Source: a virus
Lineage: Duplodnaviria > Heunggongvirae > Uroviricota > Caudoviricetes
Strand: one strand, 5' to 3'
DNA: 40,883 nucleotides
IMG/VR virus record: IMGVR_UViG_2909314774_000005
Below the pieces are notes generated by a model, which was not told the origin of the DNA, searched no databases, and was given only the letters and a program-made list of their open reading frames with translations. Positions 1 to 39,422 of the stretch are shown piece by piece (position 1 is the stretch's first letter; each line of letters begins with the position of its first letter). Made by a program: the position numbers and the translations under genes.

Positions 1-390
1 TTACTCTTTTTTCTCCGTATCTGCATCGGGTTCATCAGCAAATAGCTTGCCCTGCATCCGATCCAGTTCTTCTTTTCTTACCCGCTTAACCACGCTGTAG
101 ACCCACTGAAGCGAAACACCAAATTTGCGGGCCAGTTCGTGGTGGTTGCGTCCGTTAAACTCCCTGAAGATTTCCCGGTCGCGCTGACTGACCTTCCATA
201 CCATGCCCATCGGGAAATAAACGTTTTGCCCGCCCCAGACCTGCATCATTCGGTTCGCGACGGCCTGACCAATCTGGTCGGCAACTTCGGGCTCAATATC
301 AATAATCTCGCGAACGGTCTCAGAGGTATGCTGTGCCAGTTCCACCAGGAGTTCCGGCCCCTTACTTCGAAACTGATTCAGGTCGCTCAT
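1..390 (-). CDS. mor: Mor/C-family transcriptional activator (Mor-like, 129 aa)
   Basis: 129-aa ORF with Mor/C-family signature (GGQ.VY.P ... FNGRN ... C-terminal HTH), same length as Mu Mor; ATG preceded by GGGAG; last gene of the leftward early operon; its stop codon is the first 3 bases of the window. Confidence 0.85.
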   Translation of the reverse strand: MSDLNQFRSKGPELLVELAQHTSETVREIIDIEPEVADQIGQAVANRMMQVWGGQNVYFPMGMVWKVSQRDREIFREFNGRNHHELARKFGVSLQWVYSVVKRVRKEELDRMQGKLFADEPDADTEKKE

Positions 391-811
391 GTTTGACTCC
401 CGCAGCTCTGCGCTGCCACTTCTTCAGTTTCTCAATAACACTGCTTGCCTGTTCAGTACTGAGCCAGCGCAGGGCGCTGATGCCCGTTTCCCGCTTGATC
501 CACCTCGCTAATGCATTTTCTGAACGGTCACGAACAATGCCGGCAGCAGCCATTTCAAGCCATAGCGCACGAATTTTCCTGGACTGCGGATGGTTATCAA
601 GCGGTAAACCGGAGCTGGCTTTTCTGGCTGGTTTAACGCGAAAGCCTTTCTTTTTCATGGATTCCAGCACGCAGTTTAGTTGTGTGGTATCCATTCCTTT
701 GGTTGAGGCTTTACCGGTCAGCCCCTGTAACATCTGGCGGTAGGTGTCTTCATCCATACCCAGTTCATTACGGGCAATATGGATAAGCTGTATCAGGCGT
801 TTTTTCTGCAT
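362..811 (-). CDS. gemA: GemA-like early protein (Mu gp16/DUF1018-like)
   Basis: 149-aa ORF directly upstream of mor, overlapping it by 29 nt, as gemA-mor in Mu; N-terminal LIQLIHIARNELGMDEDTYRQML motif resembles the GemA family; ATG with AGGAG upstream. Confidence 0.7.
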   Translation of the reverse strand: MQKKRLIQLIHIARNELGMDEDTYRQMLQGLTGKASTKGMDTTQLNCVLESMKKKGFRVKPARKASSGLPLDNHPQSRKIRALWLEMAAAGIVRDRSENALARWIKRETGISALRWLSTEQASSVIEKLKKWQRRAAGVKHERPESVSK

Positions 812-812
812 A

Positions 813-1019
813 TCATCTCCTTTTTTTCAGTCTGTCGGCAACAATGTCGGTTGCAGCTGGCAGGGTGACTGGCCAGAACAACATGACGGCGGTCATGTAC
901 AGGATGTAATGCGCGGTGTCGTAGTGCCTGCCATAGCCCAGGGAACGATGAAGTCTTGCGCTGCATGATCCTGCGTACATATACCAGAAAAGAAAACAGA
1001 CAATGGTTTCAGTAGTCAT
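813..1019 (-). CDS. small hydrophobic protein (68 aa, two predicted TM segments)
   Basis: Internal ATG (residue 53) of the 813..1175 ORF, preceded by GGGGAGG; fills the gap between gemA and the upstream gene; hydrophobic stretches FLFWYMYAG and MTAVMLFWPVTLPAA. The longer 120-aa version would heavily overlap 1009..1239. Confidence 0.45.
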   Translation of the reverse strand: MTTETIVCFLFWYMYAGSCSARLHRSLGYGRHYDTAHYILYMTAVMLFWPVTLPAATDIVADRLKKRR

Positions 1020-1239
1020 TCTGAATACCTCCCCATTCGATATGAATATTACGGGCAGCAATGACAGGGTCGTTATTCCACCATGCACCTGACATGTATT
1101 TTTCAACCTGTTCGCGTCCGGCAATAACACCAATTGTGATCCCCGGCCTGACGTTCTTAAAAAAGGCGCGGGCAAAAAGGTATCTGGCAGATATTCGGCA
1201 GGCTTTTAATTTCCGGCTTTTACCTGATAGCGTAATCAT
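1009..1239 (-). CDS. hypothetical early protein (76 aa)
   Basis: ATG overlaps the stop of the upstream gene (ATGA) and is preceded by GGAGG; no recognisable motif. Confidence 0.55.
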   Translation of the reverse strand: MITLSGKSRKLKACRISARYLFARAFFKNVRPGITIGVIAGREQVEKYMSGAWWNNDPVIAARNIHIEWGGIQNDY

Positions 1240-1919
1240 CTGGCCTCCAGTTTCTGTTGTTCCTGCCCACTGACCGGGCGGTGCAGTCTGACGTTCTGCC
1301 CTTCACGAAACCCCGCATAGCGCGAGGCGTCGCCATTGCGGCTTCTTCCCGGTTTACGCGCCCTGGTGGTTTGCGTCTGCGGGTATTTATGTTCCAGCCA
1401 CTGCTGCATCAGTTCACGCTCATCATCGGTCAGGGCAAAGGACTGTATTTCACTGATAACGGCCAGCACCCAGCCTTCGGCAAACTGGTCTCCACGGCTG
1501 GTGCGGGTGGCGGTTTTTATTCTTTTGTTCTGTGCACTGATATACTGCTGACGCGCCTTTTTCAGCTGACGGGCCAGCACTTCCCAGGTGTATGCAGCCA
1601 GTGCCGCACGTTCCCGGTTGCCGTAGAACCCCACAGACGGATGCGTGCCGGGGTGAATGATGGAGTTAACACCAAATACCTCGCGGATGATGTTCATCAG
1701 GCCCAGCATGTAGCGCGGTGGACGGAGACTGCCTGTCGGCCAGTAGTGACTGATGGTTTCATCAATATCACTCATAGCAATGTCGGAATGTGTGATGCCG
1801 TGAACATCCATCAGTTTACGGGCTCGGCGCAGTGCCAGAGCGGCCTCGTGCGGGTTGCCGGATGCGGCCAGCGCCAGCAACTTTTTCAGTTTCTCAATGT
1901 GTTTATTCTGGTCTGTCAT
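1236..1919 (-). CDS. conserved phage early protein, DUF2786-like N-terminus (227 aa from the second ATG)
   Basis: N-terminal KLKKLLALAASGNPHEAALALRRARKLM helix typical of DUF2786-family phage proteins; start chosen at residue 13 ATG, which overlaps the upstream stop as ATGA; the ORF could also start at 1955. Confidence 0.65.
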   Translation of the reverse strand: MTDQNKHIEKLKKLLALAASGNPHEAALALRRARKLMDVHGITHSDIAMSDIDETISHYWPTGSLRPPRYMLGLMNIIREVFGVNSIIHPGTHPSVGFYGNRERAALAAYTWEVLARQLKKARQQYISAQNKRIKTATRTSRGDQFAEGWVLAVISEIQSFALTDDERELMQQWLEHKYPQTQTTRARKPGRSRNGDASRYAGFREGQNVRLHRPVSGQEQQKLEAR

Positions 1920-2131
1920 TGTTCTGTATCTCCGGTATTTTTCTGCCGTTTCCATGCCCGGACAGCGTCGGACAGCTCTTTCAGGCTGTATGCTGCTTTA
2001 AGCTTTTCCCATAACCACTGTGTTGTTATGTGCATCAGCAGGGCAGCCAGGGCTGCCCCCGCACTGAGGCATGTCGCCAGGCCAGTAAGAATCAGTGTCC
2101 ATGCGGTGATTTCCCTGAGTATGTCAGCCAT
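1916..2131 (-). CDS. small membrane protein (71 aa)
   Basis: ATG preceded by GGGAGG; one long hydrophobic segment WTLILTGLATCLSAGAALAALLM. Confidence 0.55.
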   Translation of the reverse strand: MADILREITAWTLILTGLATCLSAGAALAALLMHITTQWLWEKLKAAYSLKELSDAVRAWKRQKNTGDTEQ

Positions 2132-2145
2132 TGAATGCCTCCCGG

Positions 2146-2442
2146 TTACTCGTTCGTGTAAATCACGCCCAGTCGTGCAGCCAGACGTTCCAGTTTTTTC
2201 TGTTTGTGGAAGTCAATCAGCCGGTCCATCCCCTGAAGGCGCAGTTGCTCTGTCATGATTTCCACGTCTGCCAGCTCTGCCGCGAGGTCACTTTCGCTGC
2301 CCTGTCCGTTCAGGTTGCGGGCGGCACTGGCCGCCAGTTCAGCGGCCTCTTCTGCCAGTTTCAGGGCCTGTGCGTCCGGCCCGAAACGCTGCAGGGCCAG
2401 ACGGTAGAGGGCGGTGCGGGTGAGTTCGGTGTTTCGTGTCAT
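2146..2442 (-). CDS. MazG-like nucleotide pyrophosphohydrolase (98 aa)
   Basis: All-alpha MazG/NTP-PPase-like acidic motifs (LAEEAAELA ... ELADVEIM) at the expected spacing; ATG preceded by GAGGG. Confidence 0.55.
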   Translation of the reverse strand: MTRNTELTRTALYRLALQRFGPDAQALKLAEEAAELAASAARNLNGQGSESDLAAELADVEIMTEQLRLQGMDRLIDFHKQKKLERLAARLGVIYTNE

Positions 2443-2451
2443 GCCGCGCCC

Positions 2452-2724
2452 TCAGTGCTTCCGGCTGACGGTGATGTGCAGGCCGCCTTCTGCAGTGGTT
2501 TCCATCCGGTACGGCACCTCATGCTCTGCCGTGTGGGTGAGTGTGTTCATCAGTACCTGCAGGGCAGCCTCCTTTCCGTTGGTCGCCACAATGGCCTGTG
2601 TGGCCATGCTGATTAGCGCCGTCAGGACGTGCTTCACATCGGTGAGGTCGCGGCATTCACACTCGTTGACATAGTGTTCAACAAGGGTTCGGGTGCGCTG
2701 TCGTGCTTCCTGTGGGGTAATCAT
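2452..2724 (-). CDS. hypothetical early protein (90 aa)
   Basis: ATG overlapping the upstream stop (ATGA), GGGAGG upstream; no recognisable motif. Confidence 0.55.
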   Translation of the reverse strand: MITPQEARQRTRTLVEHYVNECECRDLTDVKHVLTALISMATQAIVATNGKEAALQVLMNTLTHTAEHEVPYRMETTAEGGLHITVSRKH

Positions 2725-2915
2725 TGCGAGTCCTCCCTGTCAGGGCGGGAGAATTCCATGACGGGCACGTCTGCCGAAAAATGCTGGCTGCAGTACGGGC
2801 AGACCAGGGTGACGCGTACCGCAGGGATGTGGTATTTACCGGACATCACGGCGATGGCGCTGTGAAAACGCAGGGCTGTTATATCCCTCTCGCACTGAAT
2901 ACATTTAAATATCAT
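2721..2915 (-). CDS. small zinc-ribbon-like protein (64 aa)
   Basis: Two CxxC pairs (CIQC ... CPYC) about 30 residues apart; ATG preceded by GAGGAG. Confidence 0.55.
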   Translation of the reverse strand: MIFKCIQCERDITALRFHSAIAVMSGKYHIPAVRVTLVCPYCSQHFSADVPVMEFSRPDREDSQ

Positions 2916-3012
2916 GATTTAATTCTCCTCTGTTTCCGGCGTGCAGAAGCCCGCGGCGCTGACGTCGGAATAAAAAAGAAAATGTTTTTATTAAATAATT
3001 AACGTGGTGTGT

Positions 3013-3543
3013 TTACTGCACATCCTGCTCAAAAGGAATTATTGAAAAATCCTCAATGTCGCTTTTAATGGAAATACCGGGAATATTTTTCACGGCCTCT
3101 TTTTCATTCAGGATAGCGTCTTTATTTATTTCCTCTTTTACACGAATAAAGCGCTCAAGCCCCAGACGTCTCAGTAATTCAATAACATTATCCGCCCCAC
3201 GGATACTGACTGATGGCGGACGGTTTCGCCACTGCACCTCGCCGGTGGTGAGGTTAGCGAACTTCACCTTCCCGTTGCCGGTCAGTTCATCACGGTGTGC
3301 CTCACACCATGTCTGAATACCGGACTGCAGTTCGGCCATGCGTTTTTTCAGGCTCTCGGTGAGCGGGGCATAACGTGCGGTGATATCGCCAATGGCGTCA
3401 TTCATTTCTGTTTCAGCCCTGACCAGTTCACGTTGTGCGTCACCGAGTAGTCTGATTCCCTCAATGACCTCTTCACGTGTCCCCGGCACCCAGAGTGCTG
3501 CTGCGGCCTTGATACGTTTTGCACCTTTTGTACTTTTTGCCAT
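3013..3543 (-). CDS. gam: host-nuclease inhibitor Gam (Mu Gam-like, Ku-like DNA end-binding)
   Basis: 176-aa ORF, length and sequence character of Mu Gam; position downstream of the B-like ATPase in the early operon matches Mu. Confidence 0.8.
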   Translation of the reverse strand: MAKSTKGAKRIKAAAALWVPGTREEVIEGIRLLGDAQRELVRAETEMNDAIGDITARYAPLTESLKKRMAELQSGIQTWCEAHRDELTGNGKVKFANLTTGEVQWRNRPPSVSIRGADNVIELLRRLGLERFIRVKEEINKDAILNEKEAVKNIPGISIKSDIEDFSIIPFEQDVQ

Positions 3544-3570
3544 TTTTTATGATTTCTCCAGTTGTGCTGA

Positions 3571-3840
3571 TTACCACAAAGATTCCGGCCACACGACGCG
3601 ACAGCCGTGCAGTTCGAAAACGCCCTGACGGAAATATCCCCTGTGGTCATGTCCGGTATACAGATAACAGGCCTTTCCCTGCTCAAGCATGCGCATGCAA
3701 TGCGCACTCCGGGAAACGCGGATGACAGGTTTGTTACCCCTGATGGTGATGCTTTGTACATCCGTGTTCGTCGCCTTAAGCGCCATAATGGCTGACTGCA
3801 CTTTGCTGATTTGCTGGTTGATACCTGTGGTGGATTTCAT
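3571..3840 (-). CDS. hypothetical early protein (89 aa), in the position of Mu kil-region genes
   Basis: ATG preceded by AAAGGGG, begins 3 nt after the ATPase gene stop; no recognisable motif. Confidence 0.5.
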   Translation of the reverse strand: MKSTTGINQQISKVQSAIMALKATNTDVQSITIRGNKPVIRVSRSAHCMRMLEQGKACYLYTGHDHRGYFRQGVFELHGCRVVWPESLW

Positions 3841-3842
3841 TA

Positions 3843-5009
3843 TTAAACCCCTTTGACAACGTCAGCGTTGACCTGTGGAACCCCGATTTCAGCGGCCAGA
3901 TTCATGGCGGCTATTACCAGGTTACTGACGGCCAGCGGATACAGCAGGCTGACCATATTTTTACGGTGACTTCCCGGATTGCTCAGGCGGGCACGTATGG
4001 CATCCACTGCACCGGCGTCCATAATGTCCGTCAGCTGTTTACCGGCCCGTTGCAGTTTGAACGTCAGAAATTCTTCAAGGTTATTGTCCAGAGGCAGAAG
4101 TTCGACCACCTCACAGCGCTGAACGACTTCACGGACTTCCATATTGCGTTCAGACAGTTTTGTCGCCAGTTCCGGCTGGCCAATCAGCACGATGGACAGC
4201 AGTTTTTTGAAACCGGACTCCAGCTCAAAAAAGCGTTTGAGGTGTTTCAGTGTCGGAATGGGCAGACTGTGGGCCTCCTCAATCACCAGAACGTGGCTGA
4301 ACCCCGCCTGGCTGCTGTCTTTCAGGACGCGATGCAACTGGCGAAAACGGGCGTCCTGACTGCGTCTGATGCTTTCCAGTGGTGCGATGGTACTGATAAT
4401 GGCTTCGGCAATAGCTGCTGCCTTCAGGGTTTTCCCTTTCACATCGTTGTCTTCCATAGCGATGATGTATGGCTCGATAACAATTACCGGCGCATTCTCG
4501 CGGTTGATACGTTCAGTCAGGTCGCGGCGCAGCGTGGATTTACCCGCACCGGACTCACCGATGACGGCCATAAACCCACCATGACGGGCTGTCTGGTACA
4601 GCGCCTCACGCACGTAGCGAATGTCCGGGGTGGTGAACACATCATCAGAACCCTGCATGGCTTCGTCGGCGAACGGGTCACGGAAAAGACCAAACGCTTT
4701 TTTGGTTGCTGGAAATAACACCTGTTTTTTGAGTAACATATTCTCTTCCTCACTGAGGCTCGTTTTATCTGTGGTACCCGCTGTACGGGGCGTGGCCGCG
4801 CCCTGTACAGCATCAAAACTCTTCGTTGTATCAATCCCCTGACTTTCCAGCCAGGACGCAAGACGCCGGCGCACTTCTCCGGGGCTGGTGCGGGGCCACG
4901 CGTTATGATTCACAATCTGGGCCAGCGTGGCCTCAGAAACATCGACAGCTCTCGCCACCACCGCCTGTGGAATACGGGCCTCTTTCAGTTGCTGCTTCAG
5001 TACCAGCAT
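3843..5009 (-). CDS. transposition AAA+ ATPase (MuB/TniB-like target DNA activator)
   Basis: Walker A GESGAGKST, Walker B-like VLVIEEAH; start taken at internal ATG (5009) preceded by GAGGAGGG, 10 nt after the transposase stop; the track ORF begins at an upstream GTG (5048). Confidence 0.85.
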   Translation of the reverse strand: MLVLKQQLKEARIPQAVVARAVDVSEATLAQIVNHNAWPRTSPGEVRRRLASWLESQGIDTTKSFDAVQGAATPRTAGTTDKTSLSEEENMLLKKQVLFPATKKAFGLFRDPFADEAMQGSDDVFTTPDIRYVREALYQTARHGGFMAVIGESGAGKSTLRRDLTERINRENAPVIVIEPYIIAMEDNDVKGKTLKAAAIAEAIISTIAPLESIRRSQDARFRQLHRVLKDSSQAGFSHVLVIEEAHSLPIPTLKHLKRFFELESGFKKLLSIVLIGQPELATKLSERNMEVREVVQRCEVVELLPLDNNLEEFLTFKLQRAGKQLTDIMDAGAVDAIRARLSNPGSHRKNMVSLLYPLAVSNLVIAAMNLAAEIGVPQVNADVVKGV

Positions 5010-5019
5010 GTTTCCCTCC

Positions 5020-6789
5020 TCAGTTGCCGTTAACAATGCTGATAACACTGCTGCGGGCCGGTGTGGTCAGCGTGGCCATGACTTCATCCAGTGCGGCTTC
5101 CGGTACGCCGTCCGGGTACTGTGCCGTTAACTGGCGGTAATGTTCCGGCGTCCAGGTAAGGCCGTCGGCGCTGAACTTATCGCGCAGGGCTTTCGCGGCC
5201 TCCACATGAGTCATGGGACGTTGTTCAGTGCGCGGCCCGCGTACGTCAGAGGCCTGACCACGCTTCGGCATATAGGCCGGAAGTGTGGTGTCGTCGATAT
5301 GTTTATACGGGTCAAGCCGCCCGCCGAACGGCAGCGCCTTCGCCTTGCGTGCGGCGGCTGCATCTGCGGCGTTGTCTGTACCGGTAACCAGCGCTTCGGT
5401 TTCTTTTGCCGCCATCTGTGCCGGGGTTTCCGGCAGGGCTTTGTAACTTTCGCCAAATACCGCCGCGCCTTCAGCAAAGCCAAACTCGTTCTTTCTGACC
5501 TCTTCGACCAGGAAGAACGTCTCGTGGCCGTCCTCACCGGTCAGAACCACCTGTGCCACATCGCTGCGCCATGGGTTACGGGTAATCATCAGTTTTTCAC
5601 CAACCAGTACGCCCGGTACCGTTGATACGTCAAATTCAGTGCCCCGGAACGAGACACGAAGTTTTGGCGTGACTTTGCGGAGTTCTGGTGCCGCCACAGC
5701 CAGTTCACGACATACCTCAACGGAAGGCGCTTTTTTCAGCTGCTCAGCAGTAATCTTCAGCCAGATATCCGTGCGGGTTTTACCGTGGCGGCTGTGAACA
5801 GCCGTGGCGTTAAAGTGGCTGCGCCATTTCGCGGCCAGCGCGTTGAGTTCTTCCAGACTGTGAACCGGCCGGAACTTCAGACCCGGCTCCAGCTTGCGTT
5901 CGATAATGTCACGCGCCTTTTCCACCTGTCCGGTGGCGCGGGCGTTATGCGGCTTGTGCGCTATCAGGTCGATGCCCAGTGAGCGGCACATGTTTTTCGT
6001 CATACCCGCGGTGTTTGCCGAGCCGGGGTCGAGATAGAGTATTTTCGGCACGCCGTGCAGCACGTCTGCGCCGCCACGCTCCTGCATGGCGTTGATAAGC
6101 ACAGAACACAGGTTCTCACCTGATTCCGCGCCCGTCACATACTCAACGTAAATCCAGCCGCTGGCATGGTCGGTAATCTCGTAACTCCACACGCGGTCAC
6201 TGGCGATACGGGCAAGGTTAGCGGGCTTGTTCTTGTAGAACTTCGCGCTGTCCATCACCTGCAGCCCTTTATGTCCATTGCTCAGGTAGTAAAGCGTGCA
6301 GAGTGAGGCGTCAATCTGCCAGACATGATTGGGATGCAGACTGGCCACTTCGGTATGTGGTGCAGGGGCATCCAGTTGTTCCGGGTGCAGGCCATAGTTA
6401 CGCAGAGCACGGCTGATGGCATCTTCAGACAACGGGAAAAACTCACTGGTGGTTTCATCTGTTCTGCCTGCGGTGATAAAGCCGTTAGCCCGCAGGGTTT
6501 CCACTGCATCTGCGATGGAATAGAGACGCTTACCGTTCTTGCGGGTGGCCTCACGCAGTGTGGCAGATATCAGCGCGGCTTCGTCGCGGGTCAGGGCGCT
6601 GCGCCCGGCATCGGCGCGTTTTTTGCGTTTATCAGTCACAGATACCTCCTTCAGCCTGCGCAGCAGAGTGGCGCGGGACATGCCAAGTTCAGCACAGGCA
6701 GCGTCGTATATTGCACCGCGTTTACCATGCCCCGCGTCACGTGCCGCGCGGGCTGTTTCAACCAGTTTTTCAGTCAGTGCCGGGGTCAT
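5020..6789 (-). CDS. DDE (rve/integrase-core) transposase of the transposable phage
   Basis: 589 aa; N-terminal HTH; DDE-like triad candidates (VWQIDAS, LYLDPGSAN, GQVEKA) in retroviral-integrase-like spacing; N-terminus unlike MuA as I recall it; sits just upstream of the AAA+ ATPase gene. Confidence 0.85.
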   Translation of the reverse strand: MTPALTEKLVETARAARDAGHGKRGAIYDAACAELGMSRATLLRRLKEVSVTDKRKKRADAGRSALTRDEAALISATLREATRKNGKRLYSIADAVETLRANGFITAGRTDETTSEFFPLSEDAISRALRNYGLHPEQLDAPAPHTEVASLHPNHVWQIDASLCTLYYLSNGHKGLQVMDSAKFYKNKPANLARIASDRVWSYEITDHASGWIYVEYVTGAESGENLCSVLINAMQERGGADVLHGVPKILYLDPGSANTAGMTKNMCRSLGIDLIAHKPHNARATGQVEKARDIIERKLEPGLKFRPVHSLEELNALAAKWRSHFNATAVHSRHGKTRTDIWLKITAEQLKKAPSVEVCRELAVAAPELRKVTPKLRVSFRGTEFDVSTVPGVLVGEKLMITRNPWRSDVAQVVLTGEDGHETFFLVEEVRKNEFGFAEGAAVFGESYKALPETPAQMAAKETEALVTGTDNAADAAAARKAKALPFGGRLDPYKHIDDTTLPAYMPKRGQASDVRGPRTEQRPMTHVEAAKALRDKFSADGLTWTPEHYRQLTAQYPDGVPEAALDEVMATLTTPARSSVISIVNGN

Positions 6790-6804
6790 AGCTTGTCTTC
6801 CCTG

Positions 6805-7122
6805 TTATCCGATTCTGGCGGCAATTTTTCTGGCGAGGTCGCACAGTGTTTCGCCATCGCAGGTTTTCACCACGGTATTTACCGGTTGCGGTGCAACTAC
6901 CGGGCGTAATGCTGACTGATTCTGCAGACGTCTTATCTGCTGCATCAGCATCACCTCCATCGTCAGTACAAACGGGTGCGTCTCCTGTGCGGGTACGCAG
7001 ATTTCACCGGAAGGGGTCACCACGCGGAAACCCTGCACCATCTCCGGCAGCAGATTACACAGTGCGTGCCCCAGTGCCTCCGGGCTGTCCATCAGGGTAT
7101 TTTGTGTGTTATTCGTATTCAT
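6805..7122 (-). CDS. hypothetical early protein (105 aa)
   Basis: ATG overlaps the upstream stop (TAATG), GGAGGAT upstream; no recognisable motif. Confidence 0.55.
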   Translation of the reverse strand: MNTNNTQNTLMDSPEALGHALCNLLPEMVQGFRVVTPSGEICVPAQETHPFVLTMEVMLMQQIRRLQNQSALRPVVAPQPVNTVVKTCDGETLCDLARKIAARIG

Positions 7123-8042: not shown

Positions 8043-8052
8043 TGATTACTCC

Positions 8053-8672: not shown

Positions 8673-8695
8673 TATCAAGATAGAGATTCACTTTT

Positions 8696-31292: not shown

Positions 31293-31640
31293 ATGAAAAC
31301 AACCTCAGTATTCTGGCAACCAGCCCTGCAGGCTCCCGGCGAAATTGTCCGGGGGCTGGATGATATCCGGCAGGCGATTCAAATTATCCTGCGGACTCCC
31401 CGCGGCAGCGACCCGCATCGCCCGGAGTTCGGCAGCAATCTGCATCTTTATATCGACTGGCCTGTAGACCGGGCCATTCCGCATGTGGTGCGCGAATCCG
31501 TCGATGCCATCCGGCGCTGGGAGCCCCGCTGCCAGCTTATGTCAGTTAAACCCGCCGTCGACGGCGAACATCTTACGCTCCGGGTGAGCTGGAAAGGCTC
31601 AGACGGACAGACCCGGACTCAGGAGCTGCTATGGCGCTGA
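31293..31640 (+). CDS. baseplate wedge protein, GPW/gp25-like (Mu gp46-like)
   Basis: 115-aa ORF with GPW-like N-terminal motif (IRQAIQIILRTPRGSDPHRPEFGSNL). Confidence 0.75.
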   Translation: MKTTSVFWQPALQAPGEIVRGLDDIRQAIQIILRTPRGSDPHRPEFGSNLHLYIDWPVDRAIPHVVRESVDAIRRWEPRCQLMSVKPAVDGEHLTLRVSWKGSDGQTRTQELLWR

Positions 31641-32734: not shown

Positions 32735-33305
32735 GCCATTACAACTCCCGCCACCGCTTGAGGGTGATATCAGTCTCAGGACGCTGGGAAGACTGGCAGG
32801 ACGGCTGGATAACATCGACCTGAGCGTACTGATGGTCTTTCTCGTCGATATCGTCGACAGTTCCGCGCTGCCATGGCTGGGCGAGCAGTTCTCACTGTCT
32901 GGCGATGGCTGGGAGCTGGCGGAATCGGACGATGTTCGCCGCATGCTTATAAAAGCAGCCATCGAACTGCACCGGTATAAAGGGACGCCGTGGTCAATCC
33001 GGGAAGTTATCCGCCGTTTTGGCTTTGGTGAAGTGGATCTGATTGAAGGCACAGGTCGTCTCAGTTACGACGGCAATCGCAGCTATAACGGACTGTTTGT
33101 TCATGGAGATGCAGCCGCCTGGGCAGTTTATCGCGTTATTCTGAAACAGCCCATTACTAACGATCAGGCCGCGATGCTGCGTCAGACGCTGGCTGCATTT
33201 GCACCGGCCCGCTGCCATCTGGCCAGCCTGGAGTATCAGTCTGTGGCCATTCGCTATAACAATACCGCCATCCATGATGGCAGTTATAACCACGGGAGCA
33301 GTTGA
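32727..33305 (+). CDS. tail protein I-like (Mu gp48-like, P2 gpI-like)
   Basis: 192-aa ORF between the J-like and tail-fibre genes. Confidence 0.75.
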   Translation: MTEPLQLPPPLEGDISLRTLGRLAGRLDNIDLSVLMVFLVDIVDSSALPWLGEQFSLSGDGWELAESDDVRRMLIKAAIELHRYKGTPWSIREVIRRFGFGEVDLIEGTGRLSYDGNRSYNGLFVHGDAAAWAVYRVILKQPITNDQAAMLRQTLAAFAPARCHLASLEYQSVAIRYNNTAIHDGSYNHGSS

Positions 33306-33307
33306 TT

Positions 33308-34639
33308 ATGGGAAACCTGAATGAAACAGAAAAGTGGGAAGAAAATATCTATCAACTGGAGACATCAGATCCGGTTCTGGGTGGTGCAGACGGGATATCA
33401 AATCGAGCCCCCCGGCAACTGGCAAACAGGACGAAATGGCTGAAGAAGAAAACGGAGGAAGCCGCACAGTCACTGGCTGAACACGTACGTTCCCGTAACC
33501 ACCCGGACGCGACACTGACAGCTAAGGGGTTCACCCAACTGAGCAGTGCCACCAACAGCACCTCTGAAACGCTGGCCGCCACACCAAAAGCGGTCAAGGC
33601 TGCATACGACCTGGCAGCCGGCAAGGCGCCTGCCAGCCACACTCACCCGTGGAGTCAGATAACGGGAGTGCCTGCGGCTTCACTGACGGCAAAAGGCACC
33701 GTACAACTGAGCAGCGCCACGGACAGTCAATCAGAAACTGAGGCTGCCACGCCGAAGGCGGTCAAGGCTGCATACGACCTTGCAGCCGGCAAGGCGCCCG
33801 TCAGCCACACTCACCCGTGGAGTCAGATAACGGGAGTGCCTGCTGCCTCGCTGACGGCAAAAGGCACCGTACAATTGAGCAGTGCCATCAACAGCACGTC
33901 TGAAATACTGGCCGCCACACCGAAAGCGGTCAAGGCTGCATACGATCTGGCAAACGGAAAACAACCGGCAGATGCCACGCTCACTGCTCTGGCAGGACTT
34001 GCCACTGCAGCAGATCGGTTGCCTTATTTTACCGGAGCAGACCGCGCAGAGCTGGCAACCCTTACAGCTATTGGTCGCGCTATTATCGCTAAGGGCAGTA
34101 TAAAAGATGTCCTCAATTACCTTGGTTTAGGAGAAGGCTCGGCGCTACCCGTTGGTGTGCCTGTTCCGTGGCCCACCGCCACACCGCCAGCAGGCTGGTT
34201 AAAGTGCGACGGGCGCGCCTTTACAAAAGAACAATATCCTGTTCTGGCCAGAGTCTACCCGACCCTCCGTCTTCCCGATTTACGCGGTGAGTTTATCCGT
34301 GGATGGGACGACGGGCGCAAAGTTGATACAGGACGTAAGTTGCTGTCCGCACAAGGGGCAACGCTGTTAAGAACAGCAATGCTGGATTATTATAACCAGG
34401 ACACTACGGGAACCTCGGGGATAGTCGGCATGGGATTCAACAATGAAGATTCCATTACAGACCTTCGTGAGGGCAGCTTTAAAATGCCGGACGGGACAAC
34501 ATTCAGCGATCCTGTCGTGGCAATGTCAGACAATGGTATGCAGGCTACTATTCTGACCTCTATCAGAAGCGGGTATGCGAAGGGTATCACTGTCAGACCC
34601 CGTAGCATTGCACTTAATTACATTGTGAGGGCAGTTTAA
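33308..34639 (+). CDS. tail fibre protein (constant N-terminal part plus currently expressed C-terminal variable cassette)
   Basis: 443-aa ORF from first ATG; internal 56-aa tail-fibre repeats; C-terminal part after the gix-like site (from LGEGSALPVGVPVPWP) is homologous to the two inverted cassettes downstream. Confidence 0.85.
   Translation: MGNLNETEKWEENIYQLETSDPVLGGADGISNRAPRQLANRTKWLKKKTEEAAQSLAEHVRSRNHPDATLTAKGFTQLSSATNSTSETLAATPKAVKAAYDLAAGKAPASHTHPWSQITGVPAASLTAKGTVQLSSATDSQSETEAATPKAVKAAYDLAAGKAPVSHTHPWSQITGVPAASLTAKGTVQLSSAINSTSEILAATPKAVKAAYDLANGKQPADATLTALAGLATAADRLPYFTGADRAELATLTAIGRAIIAKGSIKDVLNYLGLGEGSALPVGVPVPWPTATPPAGWLKCDGRAFTKEQYPVLARVYPTLRLPDLRGEFIRGWDDGRKVDTGRKLLSAQGATLLRTAMLDYYNQDTTGTSGIVGMGFNNEDSITDLREGSFKMPDGTTFSDPVVAMSDNGMQATILTSIRSGYAKGITVRPRSIALNYIVRAV
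33518..33961 (+). repeat. tandem 168-bp (56-aa) repeats, about 2.6 copies, inside the tail-fibre gene
   Basis: Protein repeats TAKG(F/T)xQLSSAxxSxSExxAATPKAVKAAYDLAAGKAPxSHTHPWSQITGVPAASL starting at residues 73, 129 and 185. Confidence 0.8.
34110..34135 (+). other. gix-like recombination site (expression-locus copy) at the constant/variable junction of the tail-fibre gene
   Basis: Right half-site GGTTTAGGAGAA resembles the Gin/Hin site half GGTTTACAGGAA (from memory); the same half-site recurs inverted at 35713-35738 and 38692-38717, exactly where homology to the fibre C-terminus begins. Confidence 0.55.
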
Positions 34640-35253
34640 TGAGTAACACTGCAGTTCTGGATGAAAACGGTATCGCCACTGTAGCGGGCGATATCACTGT
34701 ATATCACTATGACGAGGAAACCCGGGAATACACCTCATCCTCTGTGGAGTATCTCGCCCTTGGGGTGGGTACTCCGGCACATTCGTGCGCCGATGCACCG
34801 CCGGAAGCAATTTCGGGTTACGTGGTTTGCCGGACTGCCACGCTGAACGGGTGGGAGCATGTGCCTGATCACCGCGGCGAGACGGTATACAGCACGGAGA
34901 ACGGTAACCCCGTTCTGATTACCCAACCGGGTGATTACCCGGCGGACACCACCACAAAACAGCCAGCCACGCCATGGGATACCTGGAACGGTGAGGCGTG
35001 GGTAACCGATACTGAACGGCAGCGAGCCGCAGAACTGGAGGTTGCCAGACAGCAACGCCAGCAACGGGTGAAACAGGCGATGGCGTCCGTCGATCTTATC
35101 AACCTCAAACTGCGTGCTGGTCGCAGTCTGAAACCAGAAGAAACGGCAAAACTGAACGCCGTGCTGGATTATATCGACGAGCTGAACGCACTGGATATCA
35201 GCAAGGCACCTGAAATCAGCTGGCCGGAAGCGCCACTGGCGCTTGCCGGCTGA
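34639..35253 (+). CDS. tail fibre assembly chaperone (Tfa family, Mu U-like)
   Basis: 204-aa ORF with Tfa-like motifs (VPDHRGETVY ... WNGEAWVTDTE ... ISKAPEISWPEAP), directly after the fibre gene. Confidence 0.8.
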   Translation: MSNTAVLDENGIATVAGDITVYHYDEETREYTSSSVEYLALGVGTPAHSCADAPPEAISGYVVCRTATLNGWEHVPDHRGETVYSTENGNPVLITQPGDYPADTTTKQPATPWDTWNGEAWVTDTERQRAAELEVARQQRQQRVKQAMASVDLINLKLRAGRSLKPEETAKLNAVLDYIDELNALDISKAPEISWPEAPLALAG

Positions 35254-35259: not shown

Positions 35260-35721
35260 TCACGCCGCCCTCACGATATAGTTAAATGCGATATTGCGGG
35301 GGCGAGCTGATACATAAGCCCACCAGTCATATCTTTGTGCACCTTTAGAGGATGCATCAAATATCCACTTTTTGCCATTTAAGACCCCCAGTTGATTAGA
35401 GGTTAAAGCGTCACCAAATCCGTATTGTGTAGAGCCGAGCGAACTGATATCTCCGGTATCATTATCATCAAAACCGGATACGATAGTCCCTTCCTGAAAT
35501 GAAAGTAGCGCACGCCCGGTATCAACCTTGCGACCACCGTCCCATCCACGGATAAACTCACCGCGCAAATCGGGAAGACGGAGGGTCGGGTAGACTCTGA
35601 CCAGAACAGGATATTGTTCTTTGGTGAACGTAGCTCCGTTGCACTGTAACCAGCCTGCTGGCGGTGTGGCGGTGGGCCATGGAACCGGTACACCAACAGG
35701 CAATGCAGAGCCTTCCCCCAA
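35260..35721 (-). CDS. silent, inverted alternative tail-fibre C-terminal cassette (153 codons, begins with Leu TTG at the gix site)
   Basis: First about 70 residues near-identical to the expressed fibre C-terminal region (GEGSALPVGVPVPWPTATPPAGWL...), divergent tip, same C-terminal ending (RPRNIAFNYIVRAA); no ATG, so expression requires inversion. Confidence 0.7.
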   Translation of the reverse strand: MGEGSALPVGVPVPWPTATPPAGWLQCNGATFTKEQYPVLVRVYPTLRLPDLRGEFIRGWDGGRKVDTGRALLSFQEGTIVSGFDDNDTGDISSLGSTQYGFGDALTSNQLGVLNGKKWIFDASSKGAQRYDWWAYVSARPRNIAFNYIVRAA

Positions 35722-35738
35722 ACCAACGTTTCTATGCC
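35713..35738 (-). other. gix-like recombination site (inverted copy 1)
   Basis: TTCCCCCAAACC-AA-CGTTT on the + strand, reverse complement of the GGTTTGGGGGAA half-site, located at the 5' end of the silent cassette. Confidence 0.5.
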
Positions 35739-35905
35739 GCCCTTACGATGTAATTAAACGCAATGTTACGGGGACGAATGGTCACATAATTAACCCCATC
35801 GCCTCGCGAAGGACCTGCAAATGAAAAACGGGAGAATCCAGGTTGGTTGTCAACGATTTGGTCATAGTTATTGATTGAATGACCAGACCCAATGTCAAAA
35901 TTACC
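35732..35905 (-). pseudogene. 3' fragment of a second silent tail-fibre cassette, separated from its 5' part by the IS66-family insertion
   Basis: - strand reading frame open from the IS boundary to a stop at 35732-35734, ending ...IRPRNIAFNYIVRAA like the other cassettes; joins in frame with fragment 38438..38700 when the IS and one target-duplication copy are removed. Confidence 0.7.
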
Positions 35906-35935
35906 GTAAGCGTCAACGGAGCACCGTATTGACGC

Positions 35936-37549
35936 TTATTTATTGGTGAGTACTACGTTCCATGGCAGGAGTTCGTCAACTCGGTTGGAAGGCCATTCCG
36001 GCAGTACGCTCAGGATATGGCGCAGATACGCTTCCGGATCGATACCGTTCAGACGGCAGGTGCCGATCAGCCCGTACAACAGTGCTCCACGCTCGCCGCC
36101 GTGATCGCTGCCAAAGAACATAAAGTTTTTCTTTCCGAGACAGACTGCACGAAGCGCTCTTTCCGCAGCATTATTATCCGCCTCCGCCAGACCGTCATCA
36201 CTGTAATAACAGAGGGCATCCCACTGATTCAGTACATAGCTGAACGCTTCGCCCAGTCTGGATTTTTTCGACAGCGTACCATTCTTCTCCACCATCCATT
36301 CATGCAGCGACGTCAGTAACACTTTGCTTCGCTGCTGCCTGACGGCAAGACGCTCTGACTCCGGTAATCCCCGTATTTCATCCTCGATGGCGTACAGTTC
36401 ACTGATTCGCTTCAGGGCTTCTTCTGCCGTCGCACTTTTGCTGCTGATGTATACATCGTGGATTTTTCGCCGGGCATGGGCCCAGCACGCAACTTCTGTC
36501 AGTGCACCACCTTCACGTTCTGCACTGAACAACCTGTCGTAACCTGTGAACGCATCCGCCTGCAGGATACCCCGGAAGGGGCGGAGGTGTTGCTCCGGGT
36601 GTTTCCCCTGCCGGTTCGGCGAGTACGCGAACCAGACCGCTGGAGGAGATGACGAACCCACATTGCGATCATCCCGGACATACGTCCAGATACGCCCTGT
36701 TTTCGCCTTTTTCTGACCCGGTGCCAGTACCTTTACCGGTGTGTCATCAGTGTGAACCTTGCGGGTGTTCATTACATAACGGTACAGGGCATCATTCACC
36801 GGTGTCATTAACTGGCAGCACGCGTCAACCCAGTTGGAGAGTAAGGCCCGGCTCAGTTCGACACCCTGGCGGGCAAAGATTTCACTCTGACGATACAGTG
36901 GCAGATGTTCGCAGTATTTTCCCGTTAACACGCGGGCAAGTAATCCGGGGCCCGCGATACCACGCTCTATCGGGCGGGACGGCGCCGGTGCTTCAACAAT
37001 ACAGTCACATTTTGTACAGGCTTTTTTTACCCGTTCTGTGCGGATCACTTTCAGGGCACTGCTCACCAGTTCCAGCTGTTCAGCGCTGACTTCCCCCAGA
37101 TAATCCAGCTCACCGCCACACTCCGGGCAACAGCTTTCTTCTGGCTCCAGGCGGTGTATTTCACGGGGAAGGTGTGCCGGTAACGGACGACGATGGCGCG
37201 ACTGTCGCAACTGGCGGGGAACCTGAGGATCGTCTTCCCGCCCACTGTAACGATCGCTGTCCTGTTCACGTTGTTTCAGCAGAGCCTCAGCCAGTTCAAC
37301 TTCACGACGCAGTTTTTCAGAACGGGTACCGAACAGCATCCGGCGCAGTTTTTCTATCTGAGCCCGCAGATGTTCTATTTCCCGTTCATCTTCTTCGATC
37401 TTTTCTTCGGCACGTGTCAGTGCAGAGCGCAGGAAGGCTTCCGTCTCTTCAACCAGACTCAGTTGCTGGTCTTTCTGACGGAGGGCTTCAGCCTGCTCAG
37501 AGAGCAACCTTTCCAGCTCTGCGATGCGAATGAGGTATTTCTGACTCAT
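35936..37549 (-). CDS. IS66-family transposase (orf3/TnpC-like, 537 aa)
   Basis: N-terminal leucine-zipper-like region, CxxC...CxxC zinc motif and DDE core typical of IS66 transposases as I recall them. Confidence 0.8.
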   Translation of the reverse strand: MSQKYLIRIAELERLLSEQAEALRQKDQQLSLVEETEAFLRSALTRAEEKIEEDEREIEHLRAQIEKLRRMLFGTRSEKLRREVELAEALLKQREQDSDRYSGREDDPQVPRQLRQSRHRRPLPAHLPREIHRLEPEESCCPECGGELDYLGEVSAEQLELVSSALKVIRTERVKKACTKCDCIVEAPAPSRPIERGIAGPGLLARVLTGKYCEHLPLYRQSEIFARQGVELSRALLSNWVDACCQLMTPVNDALYRYVMNTRKVHTDDTPVKVLAPGQKKAKTGRIWTYVRDDRNVGSSSPPAVWFAYSPNRQGKHPEQHLRPFRGILQADAFTGYDRLFSAEREGGALTEVACWAHARRKIHDVYISSKSATAEEALKRISELYAIEDEIRGLPESERLAVRQQRSKVLLTSLHEWMVEKNGTLSKKSRLGEAFSYVLNQWDALCYYSDDGLAEADNNAAERALRAVCLGKKNFMFFGSDHGGERGALLYGLIGTCRLNGIDPEAYLRHILSVLPEWPSNRVDELLPWNVVLTNK

Positions 37550-37579
37550 GACCGTTTTTATAATGCGGTCAGGAGTTTT

Positions 37580-37930
37580 TTACAACATTGTCAGTGAGTT
37601 ACGGCTGGATGTTTTTGGCTGACGCCAGTCCAGCTTATCGAGGAGCATTGCCAGTTGCGAGCGGGTAATGGATACCTTGCCGTCACGTACCGCAGGCCAG
37701 ATAAACTGGCCTTCCTCCAGGCGTTTGGTGAACAGGCACAGACCATCAGCATCAGCCCAAAGAATTTTGACGGTGTCACCCCGTCGGCCACGGAAGATAA
37801 ACAGGTGACCGGAGAAGGGATTATCATTCAGCACATGTTGTACCTGTTCTCCCAGTCCGTTGAAGGATTTACGCATATCGGTAACGCCGGCAACGAGCCA
37901 GATACGGGTACCTGATGGGAGTGAGATCAT
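37580..37930 (-). CDS. IS66-family accessory protein (orf2/TnpB-like, 116 aa)
   Basis: Size, position and 4-nt overlap with orf1 typical of IS66 elements. Confidence 0.75.
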   Translation of the reverse strand: MISLPSGTRIWLVAGVTDMRKSFNGLGEQVQHVLNDNPFSGHLFIFRGRRGDTVKILWADADGLCLFTKRLEEGQFIWPAVRDGKVSITRSQLAMLLDKLDWRQPKTSSRNSLTML

Positions 37931-38352
37931 CTTCCCCTCCCGGTCAGTTCACGGATCAACACTGTGAGCAGCTCTGGCGATGGATTTTCCAGCGTCATGT
38001 TACCGTGACGGAATTCCACCTTGCAGGAACTGGCACTGACTCTGGTCTGAGTGGAAGTGGATAAAGACGGCGCAATGGCCGCCACAGGTTCTTTCTGCTC
38101 ATCCGGCGTTATTTCTACAGGTAATAATTCAACGCCAGTGTCAGAAGAGGTCGTTACCGGAAGACGCCGCGAAACACGCCCTTCGTTCTGCCAGAGCCTG
38201 AGCCATTTGAAAATAACATTATCATTGACGCCATTTTCACGTGCAATCTGTGCAACACAAGCTCCAGGTTGTGATGCCAGTTCCACCATACGAAGTTTGA
38301 ATTCATTCGAATAGTTTTTACGAGGTTCTTTTCGCCAGTCCTGTAATTCCAT
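37927..38352 (-). CDS. IS66-family accessory protein (orf1/TnpA-like, 141 aa, HTH)
   Basis: N-terminal HTH (FKLRMVELASQPGACVAQIARENGV); first ORF inside the IS. Confidence 0.75.
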   Translation of the reverse strand: MELQDWRKEPRKNYSNEFKLRMVELASQPGACVAQIARENGVNDNVIFKWLRLWQNEGRVSRRLPVTTSSDTGVELLPVEITPDEQKEPVAAIAPSLSTSTQTRVSASSCKVEFRHGNMTLENPSPELLTVLIRELTGRGR

Positions 38353-38437
38353 ACTTAGATGTCCGTCTATATCAGATGGGCGTCTAAGTTACCAATTCTC
38401 GTCTGATGGCTACATACGGCGGTCAGTTTACGCTTAC

Positions 38438-38700
38438 AAATTACCTGCGTAATGAGAAAAACTTGTACCATCCTGCCGTGAAAGCAGATCGCGCCCTGTA
38501 TCCACTTTTCGCCCGTCGTCCCATCCACGGATAAACTCACCGCGTAAATCGGGAAGACGGAGGGTCGGGTAGACTCTGGCCAGAACAGGATATTGTTCTT
38601 TTGTAAAGGCGCGCCCGTCGCACTTTAACCAGCCTGCTGGCGGTGTGGCAGTGGGCCACGGAACAGGTACACCAACGGGCAGCGCCGAGCCTTCCCCCAA
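38438..38700 (-). pseudogene. 5' fragment of the IS-disrupted silent tail-fibre cassette (begins with Leu TTG at the gix site)
   Basis: About 85 codons near-identical to the start of the expressed cassette (GEGSALPVGVPVPWPTATPPAGWLKCDGRAFTKEQYPVLARVYPTLRLPDLRGEFIRGWDDGRKVDTGR), then runs into the IS end. Confidence 0.7.
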
Positions 38701-38717
38701 ACCAACGTTTATCTCTC
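38692..38717 (-). other. gix-like recombination site (inverted copy 2), adjacent to gin
   Basis: TTCCCCCAAACC-AA-CGTTT, identical core and half-site to copy 1; lies about 55 bp upstream of the invertase gene. Confidence 0.5.
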
Positions 38718-38771
38718 AAATCCTCCCCACATTATCTCAGTACTTTAACCACTCAAAAGGGAGTATTTTTA

Positions 38772-39344
38772 ATGCTGATTGGCTACATACGTGTGTCAAC
38801 AAATGACCAAAACACAGATTTGCAACGCAATGCATTAATGTGCGCAGGATGTGAACAGATTTTTGAGGACAAAATGAGCGGAACCAAGTCGGAACGACCA
38901 GGCCTGAAACGCGCTTTAAAGTGCCTTAAAAGAGGGGATACATTGGTGGTCTGGAAGCTGGATCGGTTGGGTAGAAGAATGAAACACCTCATTGCTCTCA
39001 CAGAAGAGCTACGCGCAAAAGGTGTCAATTTTCGCAGTCTGACGGATTCAATCGATACCAGCACTCCGATGGGAAGGTTCTTTTTTCATATGATGGGTGC
39101 ACTGGCAGAAATGGAGCGTGAACTGATAGTTGAGCGCACGCTGGCTGGACTGGCTGCTGCGCGAGCACAAGGAAGAGTTGGAGGACGTCGCCCGAAACTG
39201 ACGAAGGAGCAGCATGAGCAGATCGCAAGATTGCTCCAGAAAGGGTATGACAGAAAGCGGCTGGCAATTATCTATGATATTGGACTGTCAACGATCTACC
39301 GCTATCACCCTGTTGGGACTGTCATAACGCAACCTGAAATGTAA
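38772..39344 (+). CDS. gin: serine DNA invertase, Gin/Pin/Hin family
   Basis: 190-aa ORF from ATG 38772 (AAGGGAG upstream); near-identical over much of its length to Mu Gin as recalled (MLIGYIRVSTNDQNTDLQRNAL ... GRFFFH.MGALAEMERELI.ERT); catalytic Ser in RVSTNDQ. Confidence 0.9.
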   Translation: MLIGYIRVSTNDQNTDLQRNALMCAGCEQIFEDKMSGTKSERPGLKRALKCLKRGDTLVVWKLDRLGRRMKHLIALTEELRAKGVNFRSLTDSIDTSTPMGRFFFHMMGALAEMERELIVERTLAGLAAARAQGRVGGRRPKLTKEQHEQIARLLQKGYDRKRLAIIYDIGLSTIYRYHPVGTVITQPEM

Positions 39345-39378
39345 TTCTTTTTCAAATAATGAAACGCCGCGTGGATGC

Positions 39379-39422
39379 CATTTATCGCACAAGATAGAGT
39401 GCATTTATCGCGCGGCGCATCA
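39379..39422 (+). other. prophage right terminus with Mu-like transposase-binding repeats, ending ...CGCGGCGCATCA
   Basis: Two direct CATTTATCGC repeats and a TGAAACGCCGCG motif resembling the Mu right-end sites (Mu end recalled as ...CGTTTTTCGTGCGCCGCTTCA); terminal CA-3'. Confidence 0.55.

Follow-up and report, generated by a model that had tools for sequence, protein, structure and literature searches.

A prophage in which the early and late genes diverge, the transposase does not look like MuA and the right end resembles that of Mu raises the question of whether it is a rearranged relative of Mu, something new, or a member of a phage group that is already described. The window (the whole stretch of DNA analyzed, 40,883 nucleotides) carries such an element. 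The data showed that positions 1-39422 are almost certainly a BcepMu/B3-type transposable (Mu-like) myovirus prophage, the same as EC958 Phi2 and isolated as phage PhiKM. These positions hold most of a 37.0-kb transposable prophage together with a 2.5-kb ISEc23 insertion; without the IS, the prophage is 37,045 bp long, which is inside the 36-39 kb range of BcepMu/B3-type phages. It is inserted at the 5' end of ycaL, adjoining aroA, in ST131-type E. coli.

The gene layout was analyzed using ORF strands, the annotations of identical DNA and the BcepMu record, all of which gave divergent early (-) and late (+) arms with a regulatory region between them. As the original prediction had it, every ORF between mor (1-390) and the first early gene (8414-8602), these two included, was on the - strand, and the genes for lysis, head and tail (11577-35253) were on the + strand throughout. 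Position 1 was also confirmed to lie exactly at the stop codon of mor, the last gene of the early arm, which encodes a late-transcription activator of the Mor/C family (- strand; Pfam Mor, 1.3e-43). Pfam matches showed that homologues of both Mor and GemA are present, with gemA (Mu gp16 family; Pfam GemA, 8.3e-41) at 362-811 on the - strand, and the host-nuclease inhibitor gene gam (Phage_Mu_Gam, 9.9e-41) was found at 3013-3543 on the same strand. The first gene of the early operon (8414-8602, -) encodes a small HTH protein with weak matches to HTH_31 and HTH_35; it is in the Ner/Cro position, which is also that of BcepMu gp16. Between the arms, from 8.6 to 11.6 kb, the strands are mixed, and this region contains a repressor gene (+), a Dam methylase gene (-) and three small or unknown ORFs. 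The cI-type repressor (8696-9052, +; Pfam HTH_3, 4.6e-15, and Phage_CI_repr) is divergent from the early operon and has the position of BcepMu gp17, with 23% identity. The accessory Dam-type N6-adenine methyltransferase of this central region lies at 9169-10023 on the - strand (Pfam MethyltransfD12, 8.7e-29; PADLOC MTase_II, 9e-112).

The late arm, on the + strand, begins with a lysis cassette at 11577-13304, which encodes a holin (Pfam Holin_2-3, 1e-41), an SLT transglycosylase (1.8e-14) and an Rz-like spanin (PHROG, 4e-92). This is followed by a Mu-type head module at 13938-21132, with genes for the gp27 small terminase (Phage_Mu_Gp27, 1.3e-56), the large terminase, the Mu portal (Portal_Mu, 1.6e-89), Mu F (Phage_Mu_F, 1.1e-25), Mu G, the protease/scaffold and the capsid, and by a P2-type contractile tail and baseplate module at 22633-33305 (Pfam sheath, tube FII, GPD, Baseplate_J and Tail_P2_I).

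The transposase, TnpA (5020-6789, -), was assigned to the BcepMu/B3 (Tn552-related) family of DD(35)E transposases. Its residues D160, D254 and E290 were invariant in 102 homologues, with 35 residues as the spacing from D254 to E290. TnpA was 67.8% identical to BcepMu TnpA (gp09) over 98% of its length and 56% identical to the TnpA of Pseudomonas phage B3 over 100% of its length, and it matched PHROG 310 at 3.7e-147. The adjacent gene (3843-5009, -) encodes a TnpB-type transposition ATPase (ExeA/AAA_22; Pfam AAA_22, 3.6e-20; PHROG 296 'DNA transposition protein', 8e-93), a functional analogue of MuB and TnsC, which was 59% identical to BcepMu gp08 over its full length. Taken with the gene order and strands, these identities bear out the prediction of a transposable prophage with a BcepMu-type layout.

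The transposase had also been predicted not to be MuA-like, and this held in every comparison made. A MuA-type transposase was defined by Mu HTH domains, a DDE motif with a spacing of about 55 residues and a Mu-transpos_C domain, and TnpA is not of this type: no MuA-specific Pfam domain was detected in it, and its sole Pfam match was rve (35.8 bits). Comparison of TnpA with MuA gave a BLASTP E value of 0.48 and an hhalign probability of 0.2%, and the ATPase showed no similarity to MuB (E = 2.6). A search of the PDB with the TnpA family profile matched retroviral integrase cores (2.5e-7) and TnsB (0.089), and MuA was not among the matches. Structural comparison likewise did not group TnpA with MuA, which was more distant than TnsB, IstA and the retroviral integrases; TnpA combines an RNase H-fold DD(35)E core with HTH domains at its N-terminus and a beta-barrel at its C-terminus, and TnsB is the closest fold. 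The nearest non-phage matches were transposases of the IS481 family, about 25% identical (E = 1e-12). The link to Tn552 TnpA (p480) is taken from a note in the BcepMu record and from PMC2628397 and PMC8705779.

We analyzed the ends of the element and its target duplication. The right end was placed exactly at position 39422, where ...GCGCGGCGCATCA meets TTCTTCATGTG, because comparison with the empty site of K-12 and two other insertions ending at the same base all agreed; this is the position that had been predicted. The left end had been expected about 100 bp beyond position 1, but was located 162 bp to the left in strain 81009 and in the PhiKM record, and it reads TGATTAGACTTGAGATAAATG, the left terminus of the prophage beginning TGATTAGAC... 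It had further been expected to be an inverted copy of the right end, and the terminal TG was indeed present (left TGATTAG..., right ...GCGCATCA at 39422), but the inverted repeat is imperfect (left TGATTAGACTTGAGATAAATGAC, right TGATGCGCCGCGCGATAAATGCAC). The motif GNGATAWWT occurred four times, twice at each end with repeat starts 23 bp apart and nowhere else, against 1.6 occurrences expected by chance, and from their sequence these repeats are putative TnpA sites. At the right end (39380-39422, -), the terminal ...CA is accompanied by two such putative sites, GCGATAAAT, at 39403-39411 and 39380-39388.

The target duplication was 6 bp, not the 5 bp that had been predicted, at three independent insertions: TTCTTC in ycaL, TCCTGT in kefF and GTCCAA in eamA, of which GTCCAA is the unambiguous 6-bp duplication. 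The K-12 empty site and both junctions were read directly. The right copy of TTCTTC is at 39423-39428 and corresponds to ycaL codons 2-3; with these exact borders, the ST131 copy of the prophage interrupts ycaL after codon 3. Host aroA (39600-40883, -; RefSeq annotation of identical DNA) is outside the element.

Could the element be a true Mu-family (MuA-type) prophage in which a rearrangement inverted the early region, or a pair of elements lying side by side? It does have the Mu-family genes mor, gemA, gam, gp27, portal and F, it encodes an invertase 77% identical to Mu Gin near its right end, and 17 of 22 bases of that end agree with Mu R1, all of which would fit such an origin. Against it, there is no similarity to MuA or MuB, and the duplication is 6 bp instead of 5 bp. 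An internal left end near 9.0-11.5 kb would have pointed to two elements or an inversion, but no end-like sequence was found there or elsewhere inside positions 1-39422. Moreover, the same layout was found in BcepMu, in B3 and in independent E. coli insertions, and it is therefore the native arrangement of the family and not a local inversion. With internal ends absent, and with TnpA and the ATPase showing full-length identity to BcepMu proteins, the MuA-type or juxtaposed-elements reading was refuted, and we give it practically no credence.

The resemblance of the right end to Mu R1, which had been predicted, was confirmed. The first 22 bases matched Mu R1 at 17 of 22 in the same register, and CGATAAATG at the right end matched the core of Mu R2 exactly. 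However, the match to Mu R1 ended short of 28 bases, the left end was unlike Mu L1, and a stretch inside tnpA (6718-6739) matches Mu R1 just as well (17/22) by chance. One explanation is that a Mu-like phage supplied the right end along with gin and the tail-fibre module. BcepMu has no gin, and the Gin of the present element, which is so close to that of Mu, is encoded 78 bp from the right end; these facts and the matches to R1 and R2 would suit an acquisition. However, right ends of this kind are also found in the gin-less BcepMu and B3 (TGAAGCGCGGCGCGATA.. and TGTAGCGCGGCGCGAAA..), where they match Mu R1 at 13-14 of 22 bases (B3 hand-counted from its printed end), and a GCGC-rich terminal block was present in both of these gin-less right ends. 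Nucleotide similarity to Mu also stops inside gin, at 39160, and the right-end repeats have the spacing and core of those at the element's left end. An acquired right end is therefore very improbable, given these points and the chance match in tnpA. A Mu-like end beside a non-Mu transposase, which had seemed a tension, is not peculiar to this element, since the right ends of BcepMu and B3 show it too.

The region before the right end contains the tail-fibre genes. The expressed tail-fibre gene and a tail-fibre assembly gene are at 33308-35253 on the + strand (Pfam Phage_fiber_2, Collar and Caudo_TAP). Invertase crossover site 1 (34110-34135, +), at the head of a 229-bp repeat (34119-34347), matched the Phi2_5prime site of EC958 exactly (PMC4134206). 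An alternative C-terminal cassette B (Pfam Collar) with crossover site 2 (35713-35738) lies at 35260-35738 on the - strand, and its repeat is 85% complementary to repeat copy 1. Crossover site 3 (38692-38717, -), at the head of the repeat at 38480-38708, matched the Phi2_3prime site of EC958 exactly. The serine DNA invertase of the Gin family (38772-39344, +; Pfam Resolvase, 8e-51, and HTH_7) flips the tail-fibre C-terminal cassettes among the three crossover sites. Alternative fibre cassette C contains ISEc23 (35906-38437, -; IS66 family with tnpA, tnpB and tnpC; Pfam IS66 domains and RefSeq annotation), flanked by the 8-bp duplication AAATTACC at 35898-35905 and 38438-38445. This IS is missing from the otherwise 100% identical prophage of strain 81009.

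The IS bears on whether the prophage is a defective, immobile remnant fixed in ST131, in which the ends and transposase are relics and ISEc23 marks decay. The same ycaL insertion was found in 359 complete genomes, which suggests clonal inheritance; in addition, RefSeq marks the tail-fibre gene of 81009 as a pseudogene. In contrast, the tail-fibre ORF in the window was intact (443 aa), all core genes had full-length ORFs, and the IS sits in a silent alternative cassette. The DNA was also 100% identical to that of PhiKM, a deposited isolate in which the left end adjoins other DNA, from a plasmid, and close relatives were found in kefF, in eamA and in plasmid records, each with fresh 6-bp duplications. 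We consider a dead remnant unlikely.

A lifestyle for the BcepMu/B3-type prophage can be proposed by analogy with Mu, B3 and Tn552/Tn7-type elements. TnpA would bind the paired putative sites at both ends, nick at the terminal CA-3' and join the ends 6 bp apart to target DNA captured by the ATPase. Lytic growth would proceed via repeated replicative transposition, Mor would then activate the late genes of the rightward arm, and flanking host DNA would probably enter the virion by headful packaging.

The element was compared with named systems. The PhiKM record (PQ738613), a partial and partly chimeric assembly, showed 100% nucleotide identity to the prophage over 1-27369 and 99.9% over 27556-34254 (blastn, on either side of the record's sequencing gap). 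Its left end is joined to plasmid DNA, unlike that of the ycaL copy. EC958 Phi2 has exactly the same invertase crossover sites and shares the 227/229-bp inverted repeat. The early region was found in 639 of 5,426 complete E. coli genomes, and many ST131 genomes share the ycaL/aroA site; ISEc23 in the silent tail-fibre cassette distinguishes the present copy from PhiKM and Phi2. The prophage already exists as a deposited phage isolate and has been catalogued in reference genomes of ST131.

In BcepMu (NC_005882, the type of Bcepmuvirus), the genes of the early (-) and late (+) arms follow the same order on the same strands, the TG..CA ends each have two repeats at offsets equal to those of the prophage, and the head is likewise Mu-type and the tail P2-type; the BcepMu genome is 36.7 kb in comparison with 37.0 kb here. 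BcepMu lacks gin and has an acyltransferase at its right end, whereas the E. coli element has the Dam methylase, Gin and the invertible tail-fibre region. The DNA matches are collinear, but 30% of the prophage aligned by blastn, at a mean identity of 67.7%, and a megablast search gave no BcepMu match. For a genus, the ICTV guideline asks for nucleotide similarity of about 70% or more across the genome, and membership in the same genus as BcepMu in the strict ICTV sense is doubtful because of this limited alignment. The GenBank taxonomy nonetheless places PhiKM in Bcepmuvirus.

Phage B3 (Beetrevirus) is alike in its early operon, inverted relative to Mu, its 6-bp duplication and its TG-CA ends (PMC5977238, PMC8705779), and its right-end sequence is similar to that of the prophage, but its tail module differs, B3 being a siphovirus (PMC8705779). 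The divergent-arm layout has been described (PMC5977238, PMC8705779), as have the inverted early operon and the transposition proteins, other than those of Mu, of B3-like phages (PMC5977238), the 6-bp duplication and TG-CA ends of B3/Tn552-family transposases (PMC8705779), and the BcepMu-type ends with an rve-core, Tn552-related transposase (PMC2628397). The suspected novelty was therefore not borne out: element, family, layout, transposase type and 6-bp footprint were all previously described, and the finding is real but ordinary, because the unusual layout and non-Mu transposase are defining, published traits of the BcepMu/B3 group. Its value for discovery is small, but it is useful as a worked annotation example: when a "Mu-like" prophage has divergent arms and its transposase shows rve only, BcepMu/B3-type is the proper assignment, and TG...CA ends, GNGATAWWT repeats in pairs and a 6-bp duplication can be used to find its borders.

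TnsB (of Tn7 and type V-K CAST) and Tn552-type systems share with the prophage the DD(35)E spacing, a partner AAA+ ATPase and repeated sites of about 22 bp at each end, but sequence identity is only about 12-16%, and the prophage is a phage and not a transposon. Mu shares the transposable lifestyle, the mor, gemA, gam, gp27, portal, F and G families, TG..CA ends and an invertible fibre segment near the right end. However, its transposase and ATPase have no detectable sequence similarity to those of the prophage, and its early arm is in the opposite orientation. In Mu, the early and late genes are co-directional, the duplication is 5 bp and each end has three sites, whereas the prophage has divergent arms, a 6-bp duplication and two sites per end.

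Comparison with sequence records showed that the type of element and this specific prophage are both already known. Over window 1-12000, identity with Escherichia phage PhiKM (PQ738613) was 100%, and blastn with the whole PhiKM record gave 100% over window 1-27369 and 99.9% over 27556-34254, the two stretches being separated by a sequencing gap in that record. The record, a partial genome from uropathogenic E. coli, is assigned to Bcepmuvirus in GenBank; it ends within the tail-fibre repeat and lacks the rightmost 5 kb of the phage. Many E. coli chromosomes matched the right part of the window, and 639 of the 5,426 complete E. coli genomes carried the early region; O25b:H4/ST131 strains made up many of these. 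The host gene aroA lies at 39600-40883. Strain 81009 has the same sequence over window 1-3000, and there window base 1 is preceded on the left by ycaL, cmk, rpsA, and ihfB. Since aroA adjoins ycaL in K-12, the element is an insertion between these two genes, with a size of 39,585 bp in the window and 37,045 bp without the IS.

The borders were read by comparing the empty site of K-12 (...AGTATTCTTCATGTGAATC...) with both junctions. The left junction was ...AGTATTCTTC/TGATTAGACTTGAG..., with the element starting at position 3838 of the strain 81009 DNA (L002), or window coordinate -162. On the right the junction was ...GCGCGGCGCATCA/TTCTTCATGTG..., and the element ended at window 39422, exactly as the original prediction had placed it. 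PhiKM bases 20577-34674 correspond to window -162 to 13935, and the 343 bp upstream belong to a plasmid-borne ABC-permease gene, not to ycaL; because the left end is joined there to other DNA, it is independently confirmed. In the PhiKM record this 343-bp stretch (PQ738613 20234-20576), from an IncF-type plasmid, is fused to the phage left end; the junction represents a chimeric assembly or else host DNA that was packaged or transposed.

The duplication at ycaL was TTCTTC, 6 bp given TG...CA ends, and 7 bp also fits there owing to a chance A. In close relatives, two independent insertions showed the duplications TCCTGT in kefF (NZ_CP097711) and GTCCAA in eamA (NZ_CP178667), and that in eamA was unambiguous on both sides; the length is therefore 6 bp. 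The 5-bp duplication that had been expected, which is that of Mu, was thus not borne out at any of the three sites. The prophage interrupts ycaL behind codon 3 (window 39423-39431; L002 3830-3857). In RefSeq, the lysogen ycaL has been re-annotated with an ATT start inside the phage left end, so that, in the 359 complete genomes with the same junction, ycaL may be silent or expressed from the phage end. Between mor and the left end, the relatives in eamA (L007 37142-37939) and kefF (L008 2801-3598) carry two additional small genes (633 and 162 bp); both genes are absent from the window's element, where the gap from mor to the end is only 162 bp. The left-end interval beyond mor looks like a variable cargo slot.

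We analyzed the gene layout of the element. Every ORF from mor (1-390) to the small HTH gene (8414-8602) was on the - strand, with gemA (362-811), gam (3013-3543), the AAA+ ATPase gene (3843-5009), and the gene for the transposase TnpA (5020-6789) between them, and a cI-type repressor gene (8696-9052, + strand) faced these early genes. The late genes (11577-35253, + strand) encode holin, SLT endolysin, and spanin, then a head part with Mu gp27, terminase, Mu portal, and Mu F, and a tail part with P2-type sheath, tube, baseplate, and fibre. The ORF strands agreed with the predicted divergence of early (-) and late (+) arms, and the BcepMu record matched the layout of the element in every gene and strand. 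A Dam methylase gene (9169-10023, - strand) lies in a mixed accessory stretch with three further ORFs (10124-10339, -; 10338-10742, +; 10718-11446, -), which are located between it and the lysis genes. Scanning of 10124-11446 with PADLOC and PHROGs assigned them no function: the PHROG families that matched are all of unknown function, and PADLOC gave nothing credible. Compared with its counterpart at this position in the kefF relative, the ORF at 10718-11446 differed in length, which makes the interval a possible variable accessory locus.

The transposase had been predicted not to be MuA-like, and the sequence searches were in accord with this. Pfam detected rve alone in TnpA (35.8 bits) and no Mu-specific domain. 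BLASTP gave an E value of 0.48 for TnpA against MuA, and the partner ATPase matched MuB with an E value of 2.6. No link to MuA was found by BLASTP, by hhalign with a 23-sequence profile, or by hmmsearch of the PDB with 23- and 102-sequence profiles; the family profile matched retroviral integrase cores (2.5e-7), TnsB (0.089), and IstA (1.2) in the PDB, and MuA was absent. In the 102-sequence alignment, which covers three clades, D160, D254, and E290 were invariant and form the DD(35)E triad. TnpA was 67.8% identical to BcepMu gp09, which is annotated in the BcepMu record as 'Tn552/IS1604 rve transposase', and 56% identical to B3 TnpA, while the ATPase was 59% identical to BcepMu gp08 and gave only generic P-loop matches by sequence against the PDB. 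The nearest non-phage relatives of TnpA were IS481-family transposases (~25% identity).

The structure of TnpA was also modelled. The alignment behind a first model was shallow (67-93% identity); this model had a pLDDT of 57 and was discarded as unusable, whereas a second, from an alignment widened by two clades, reached 84.4. The second model matched TnsB of the type V-K CAST (ShCAST) (7.8e-18; 21.9), IstA (4.8e-15; 20.9), Tn7 TnsB (9.6e-13; 21.1), retroviral integrases (about 1e-9 to 5e-8; 13-20), and MuA (4.9e-9; 12.9). From these matches, TnpA is predicted to be a multi-domain TnsB/Tn552-like enzyme, with MuA no more than a remote structural cousin. One distant TnpA homologue (P0298) has a precomputed Pfam match to Mu-transpos_C (PF09299) beside rve, which hints that the C-terminal beta-barrels of the TnpA family and of MuA may be related.

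The right part of the element holds a tail-fibre system that is invertible at three sites, with only one tail-fibre assembly gene but two cassettes for alternative C termini. The invertase (38772-39344) was 77% identical to Mu Gin, and the crossover sites at 34110-34135 (site 1, +), 35713-35738 (site 2, -), and 38692-38717 (site 3, -) are each headed by a 229-bp repeat. Inversion at the crossover sites of Phi2, the same prophage in ST131 strain EC958, has been observed in PacBio reads (PMC4134206). Sites 1 and 3 were exact matches to Phi2 crossover sites, and site 2 is absent from those given in the available part of that article. ISEc23 (IS66 family; tnpA/tnpB/tnpC; 35906-38437, -), flanked by the 8-bp duplication AAATTACC, breaks the second silent alternative cassette, and the expressed tail-fibre gene is intact. 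The prophage of strain 81009 is without ISEc23 but otherwise identical.

The motif G[AC]GATA[AT][AT]T occurred only four times in the window and left flank, against a chance expectation of 1.6. Each end carried two copies in inverted orientation, their starts separated by 23 bp, and the BcepMu ends showed the same arrangement with the same offsets. We infer that these copies are putative TnpA binding sites. An internal left end was sought with both 24-mers (<=7 mismatches) and the degenerate repeat motif, and no end-like sequence was found inside the window, neither at 9-11.5 kb, where the original prediction had considered a left end that would speak against it, nor elsewhere.

The defining features of BcepMu/B3-type phages were found in all cases tested. 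B3-like phages differ from Mu in an inverted early operon and different transposition proteins (PMC5977238); B3/Tn552-family transposases make 6-bp duplications, and TG-CA ends are found in their phages (PMC8705779); and BcepMu-type elements have TG...CA termini and a Tn552-related transposase with an rve core (PMC2628397). Membership at the family level is secure. The original observation was confirmed, and the BcepMu-type reading is supported by the layout and the identities with gp09 and gp08. However, only 30% of the element's DNA aligned with BcepMu, at 67.7% identity, and by this measure the GenBank label Bcepmuvirus is generous.

The sole loose thread is that BcepMu/B3-type right ends resemble the Mu right end in sequence. 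The predicted likeness to Mu R1 is real: TGATGCGCCGCGCGATAAATGC at the right end of the element and TGAAGCGGCGCACGAAAAACGC of Mu R1 agreed at 17/22 positions, in register, and CGATAAATG was present in the second right-end repeat and also in Mu R2. The weight of this likeness is lowered by four observations: the match stopped short of 28 bases, the left end of the element was dissimilar to Mu L1, a second 17/22 match occurred by chance inside tnpA, and the right ends of BcepMu and B3 shared the GC-rich terminal block of the element. Import of the right end from Mu along with gin was rejected; it does not explain the likeness to Mu R1, because the nucleotide similarity to Mu stops within gin, and ends of this type also occur in BcepMu and B3, which lack gin. 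Across the right ends of the three phages (window 39380-39422; records L004, L014, and L012), likeness to Mu R1 was 13-17/22, with an inner CGATAAATG, and their left ends were purine-rich and not Mu L1-like. The Mu R1 likeness belongs to the family, not to the element alone, and the resemblance between BcepMu/B3-type and Mu right ends may stem from an ancient common ancestor or from a constraint that both share.
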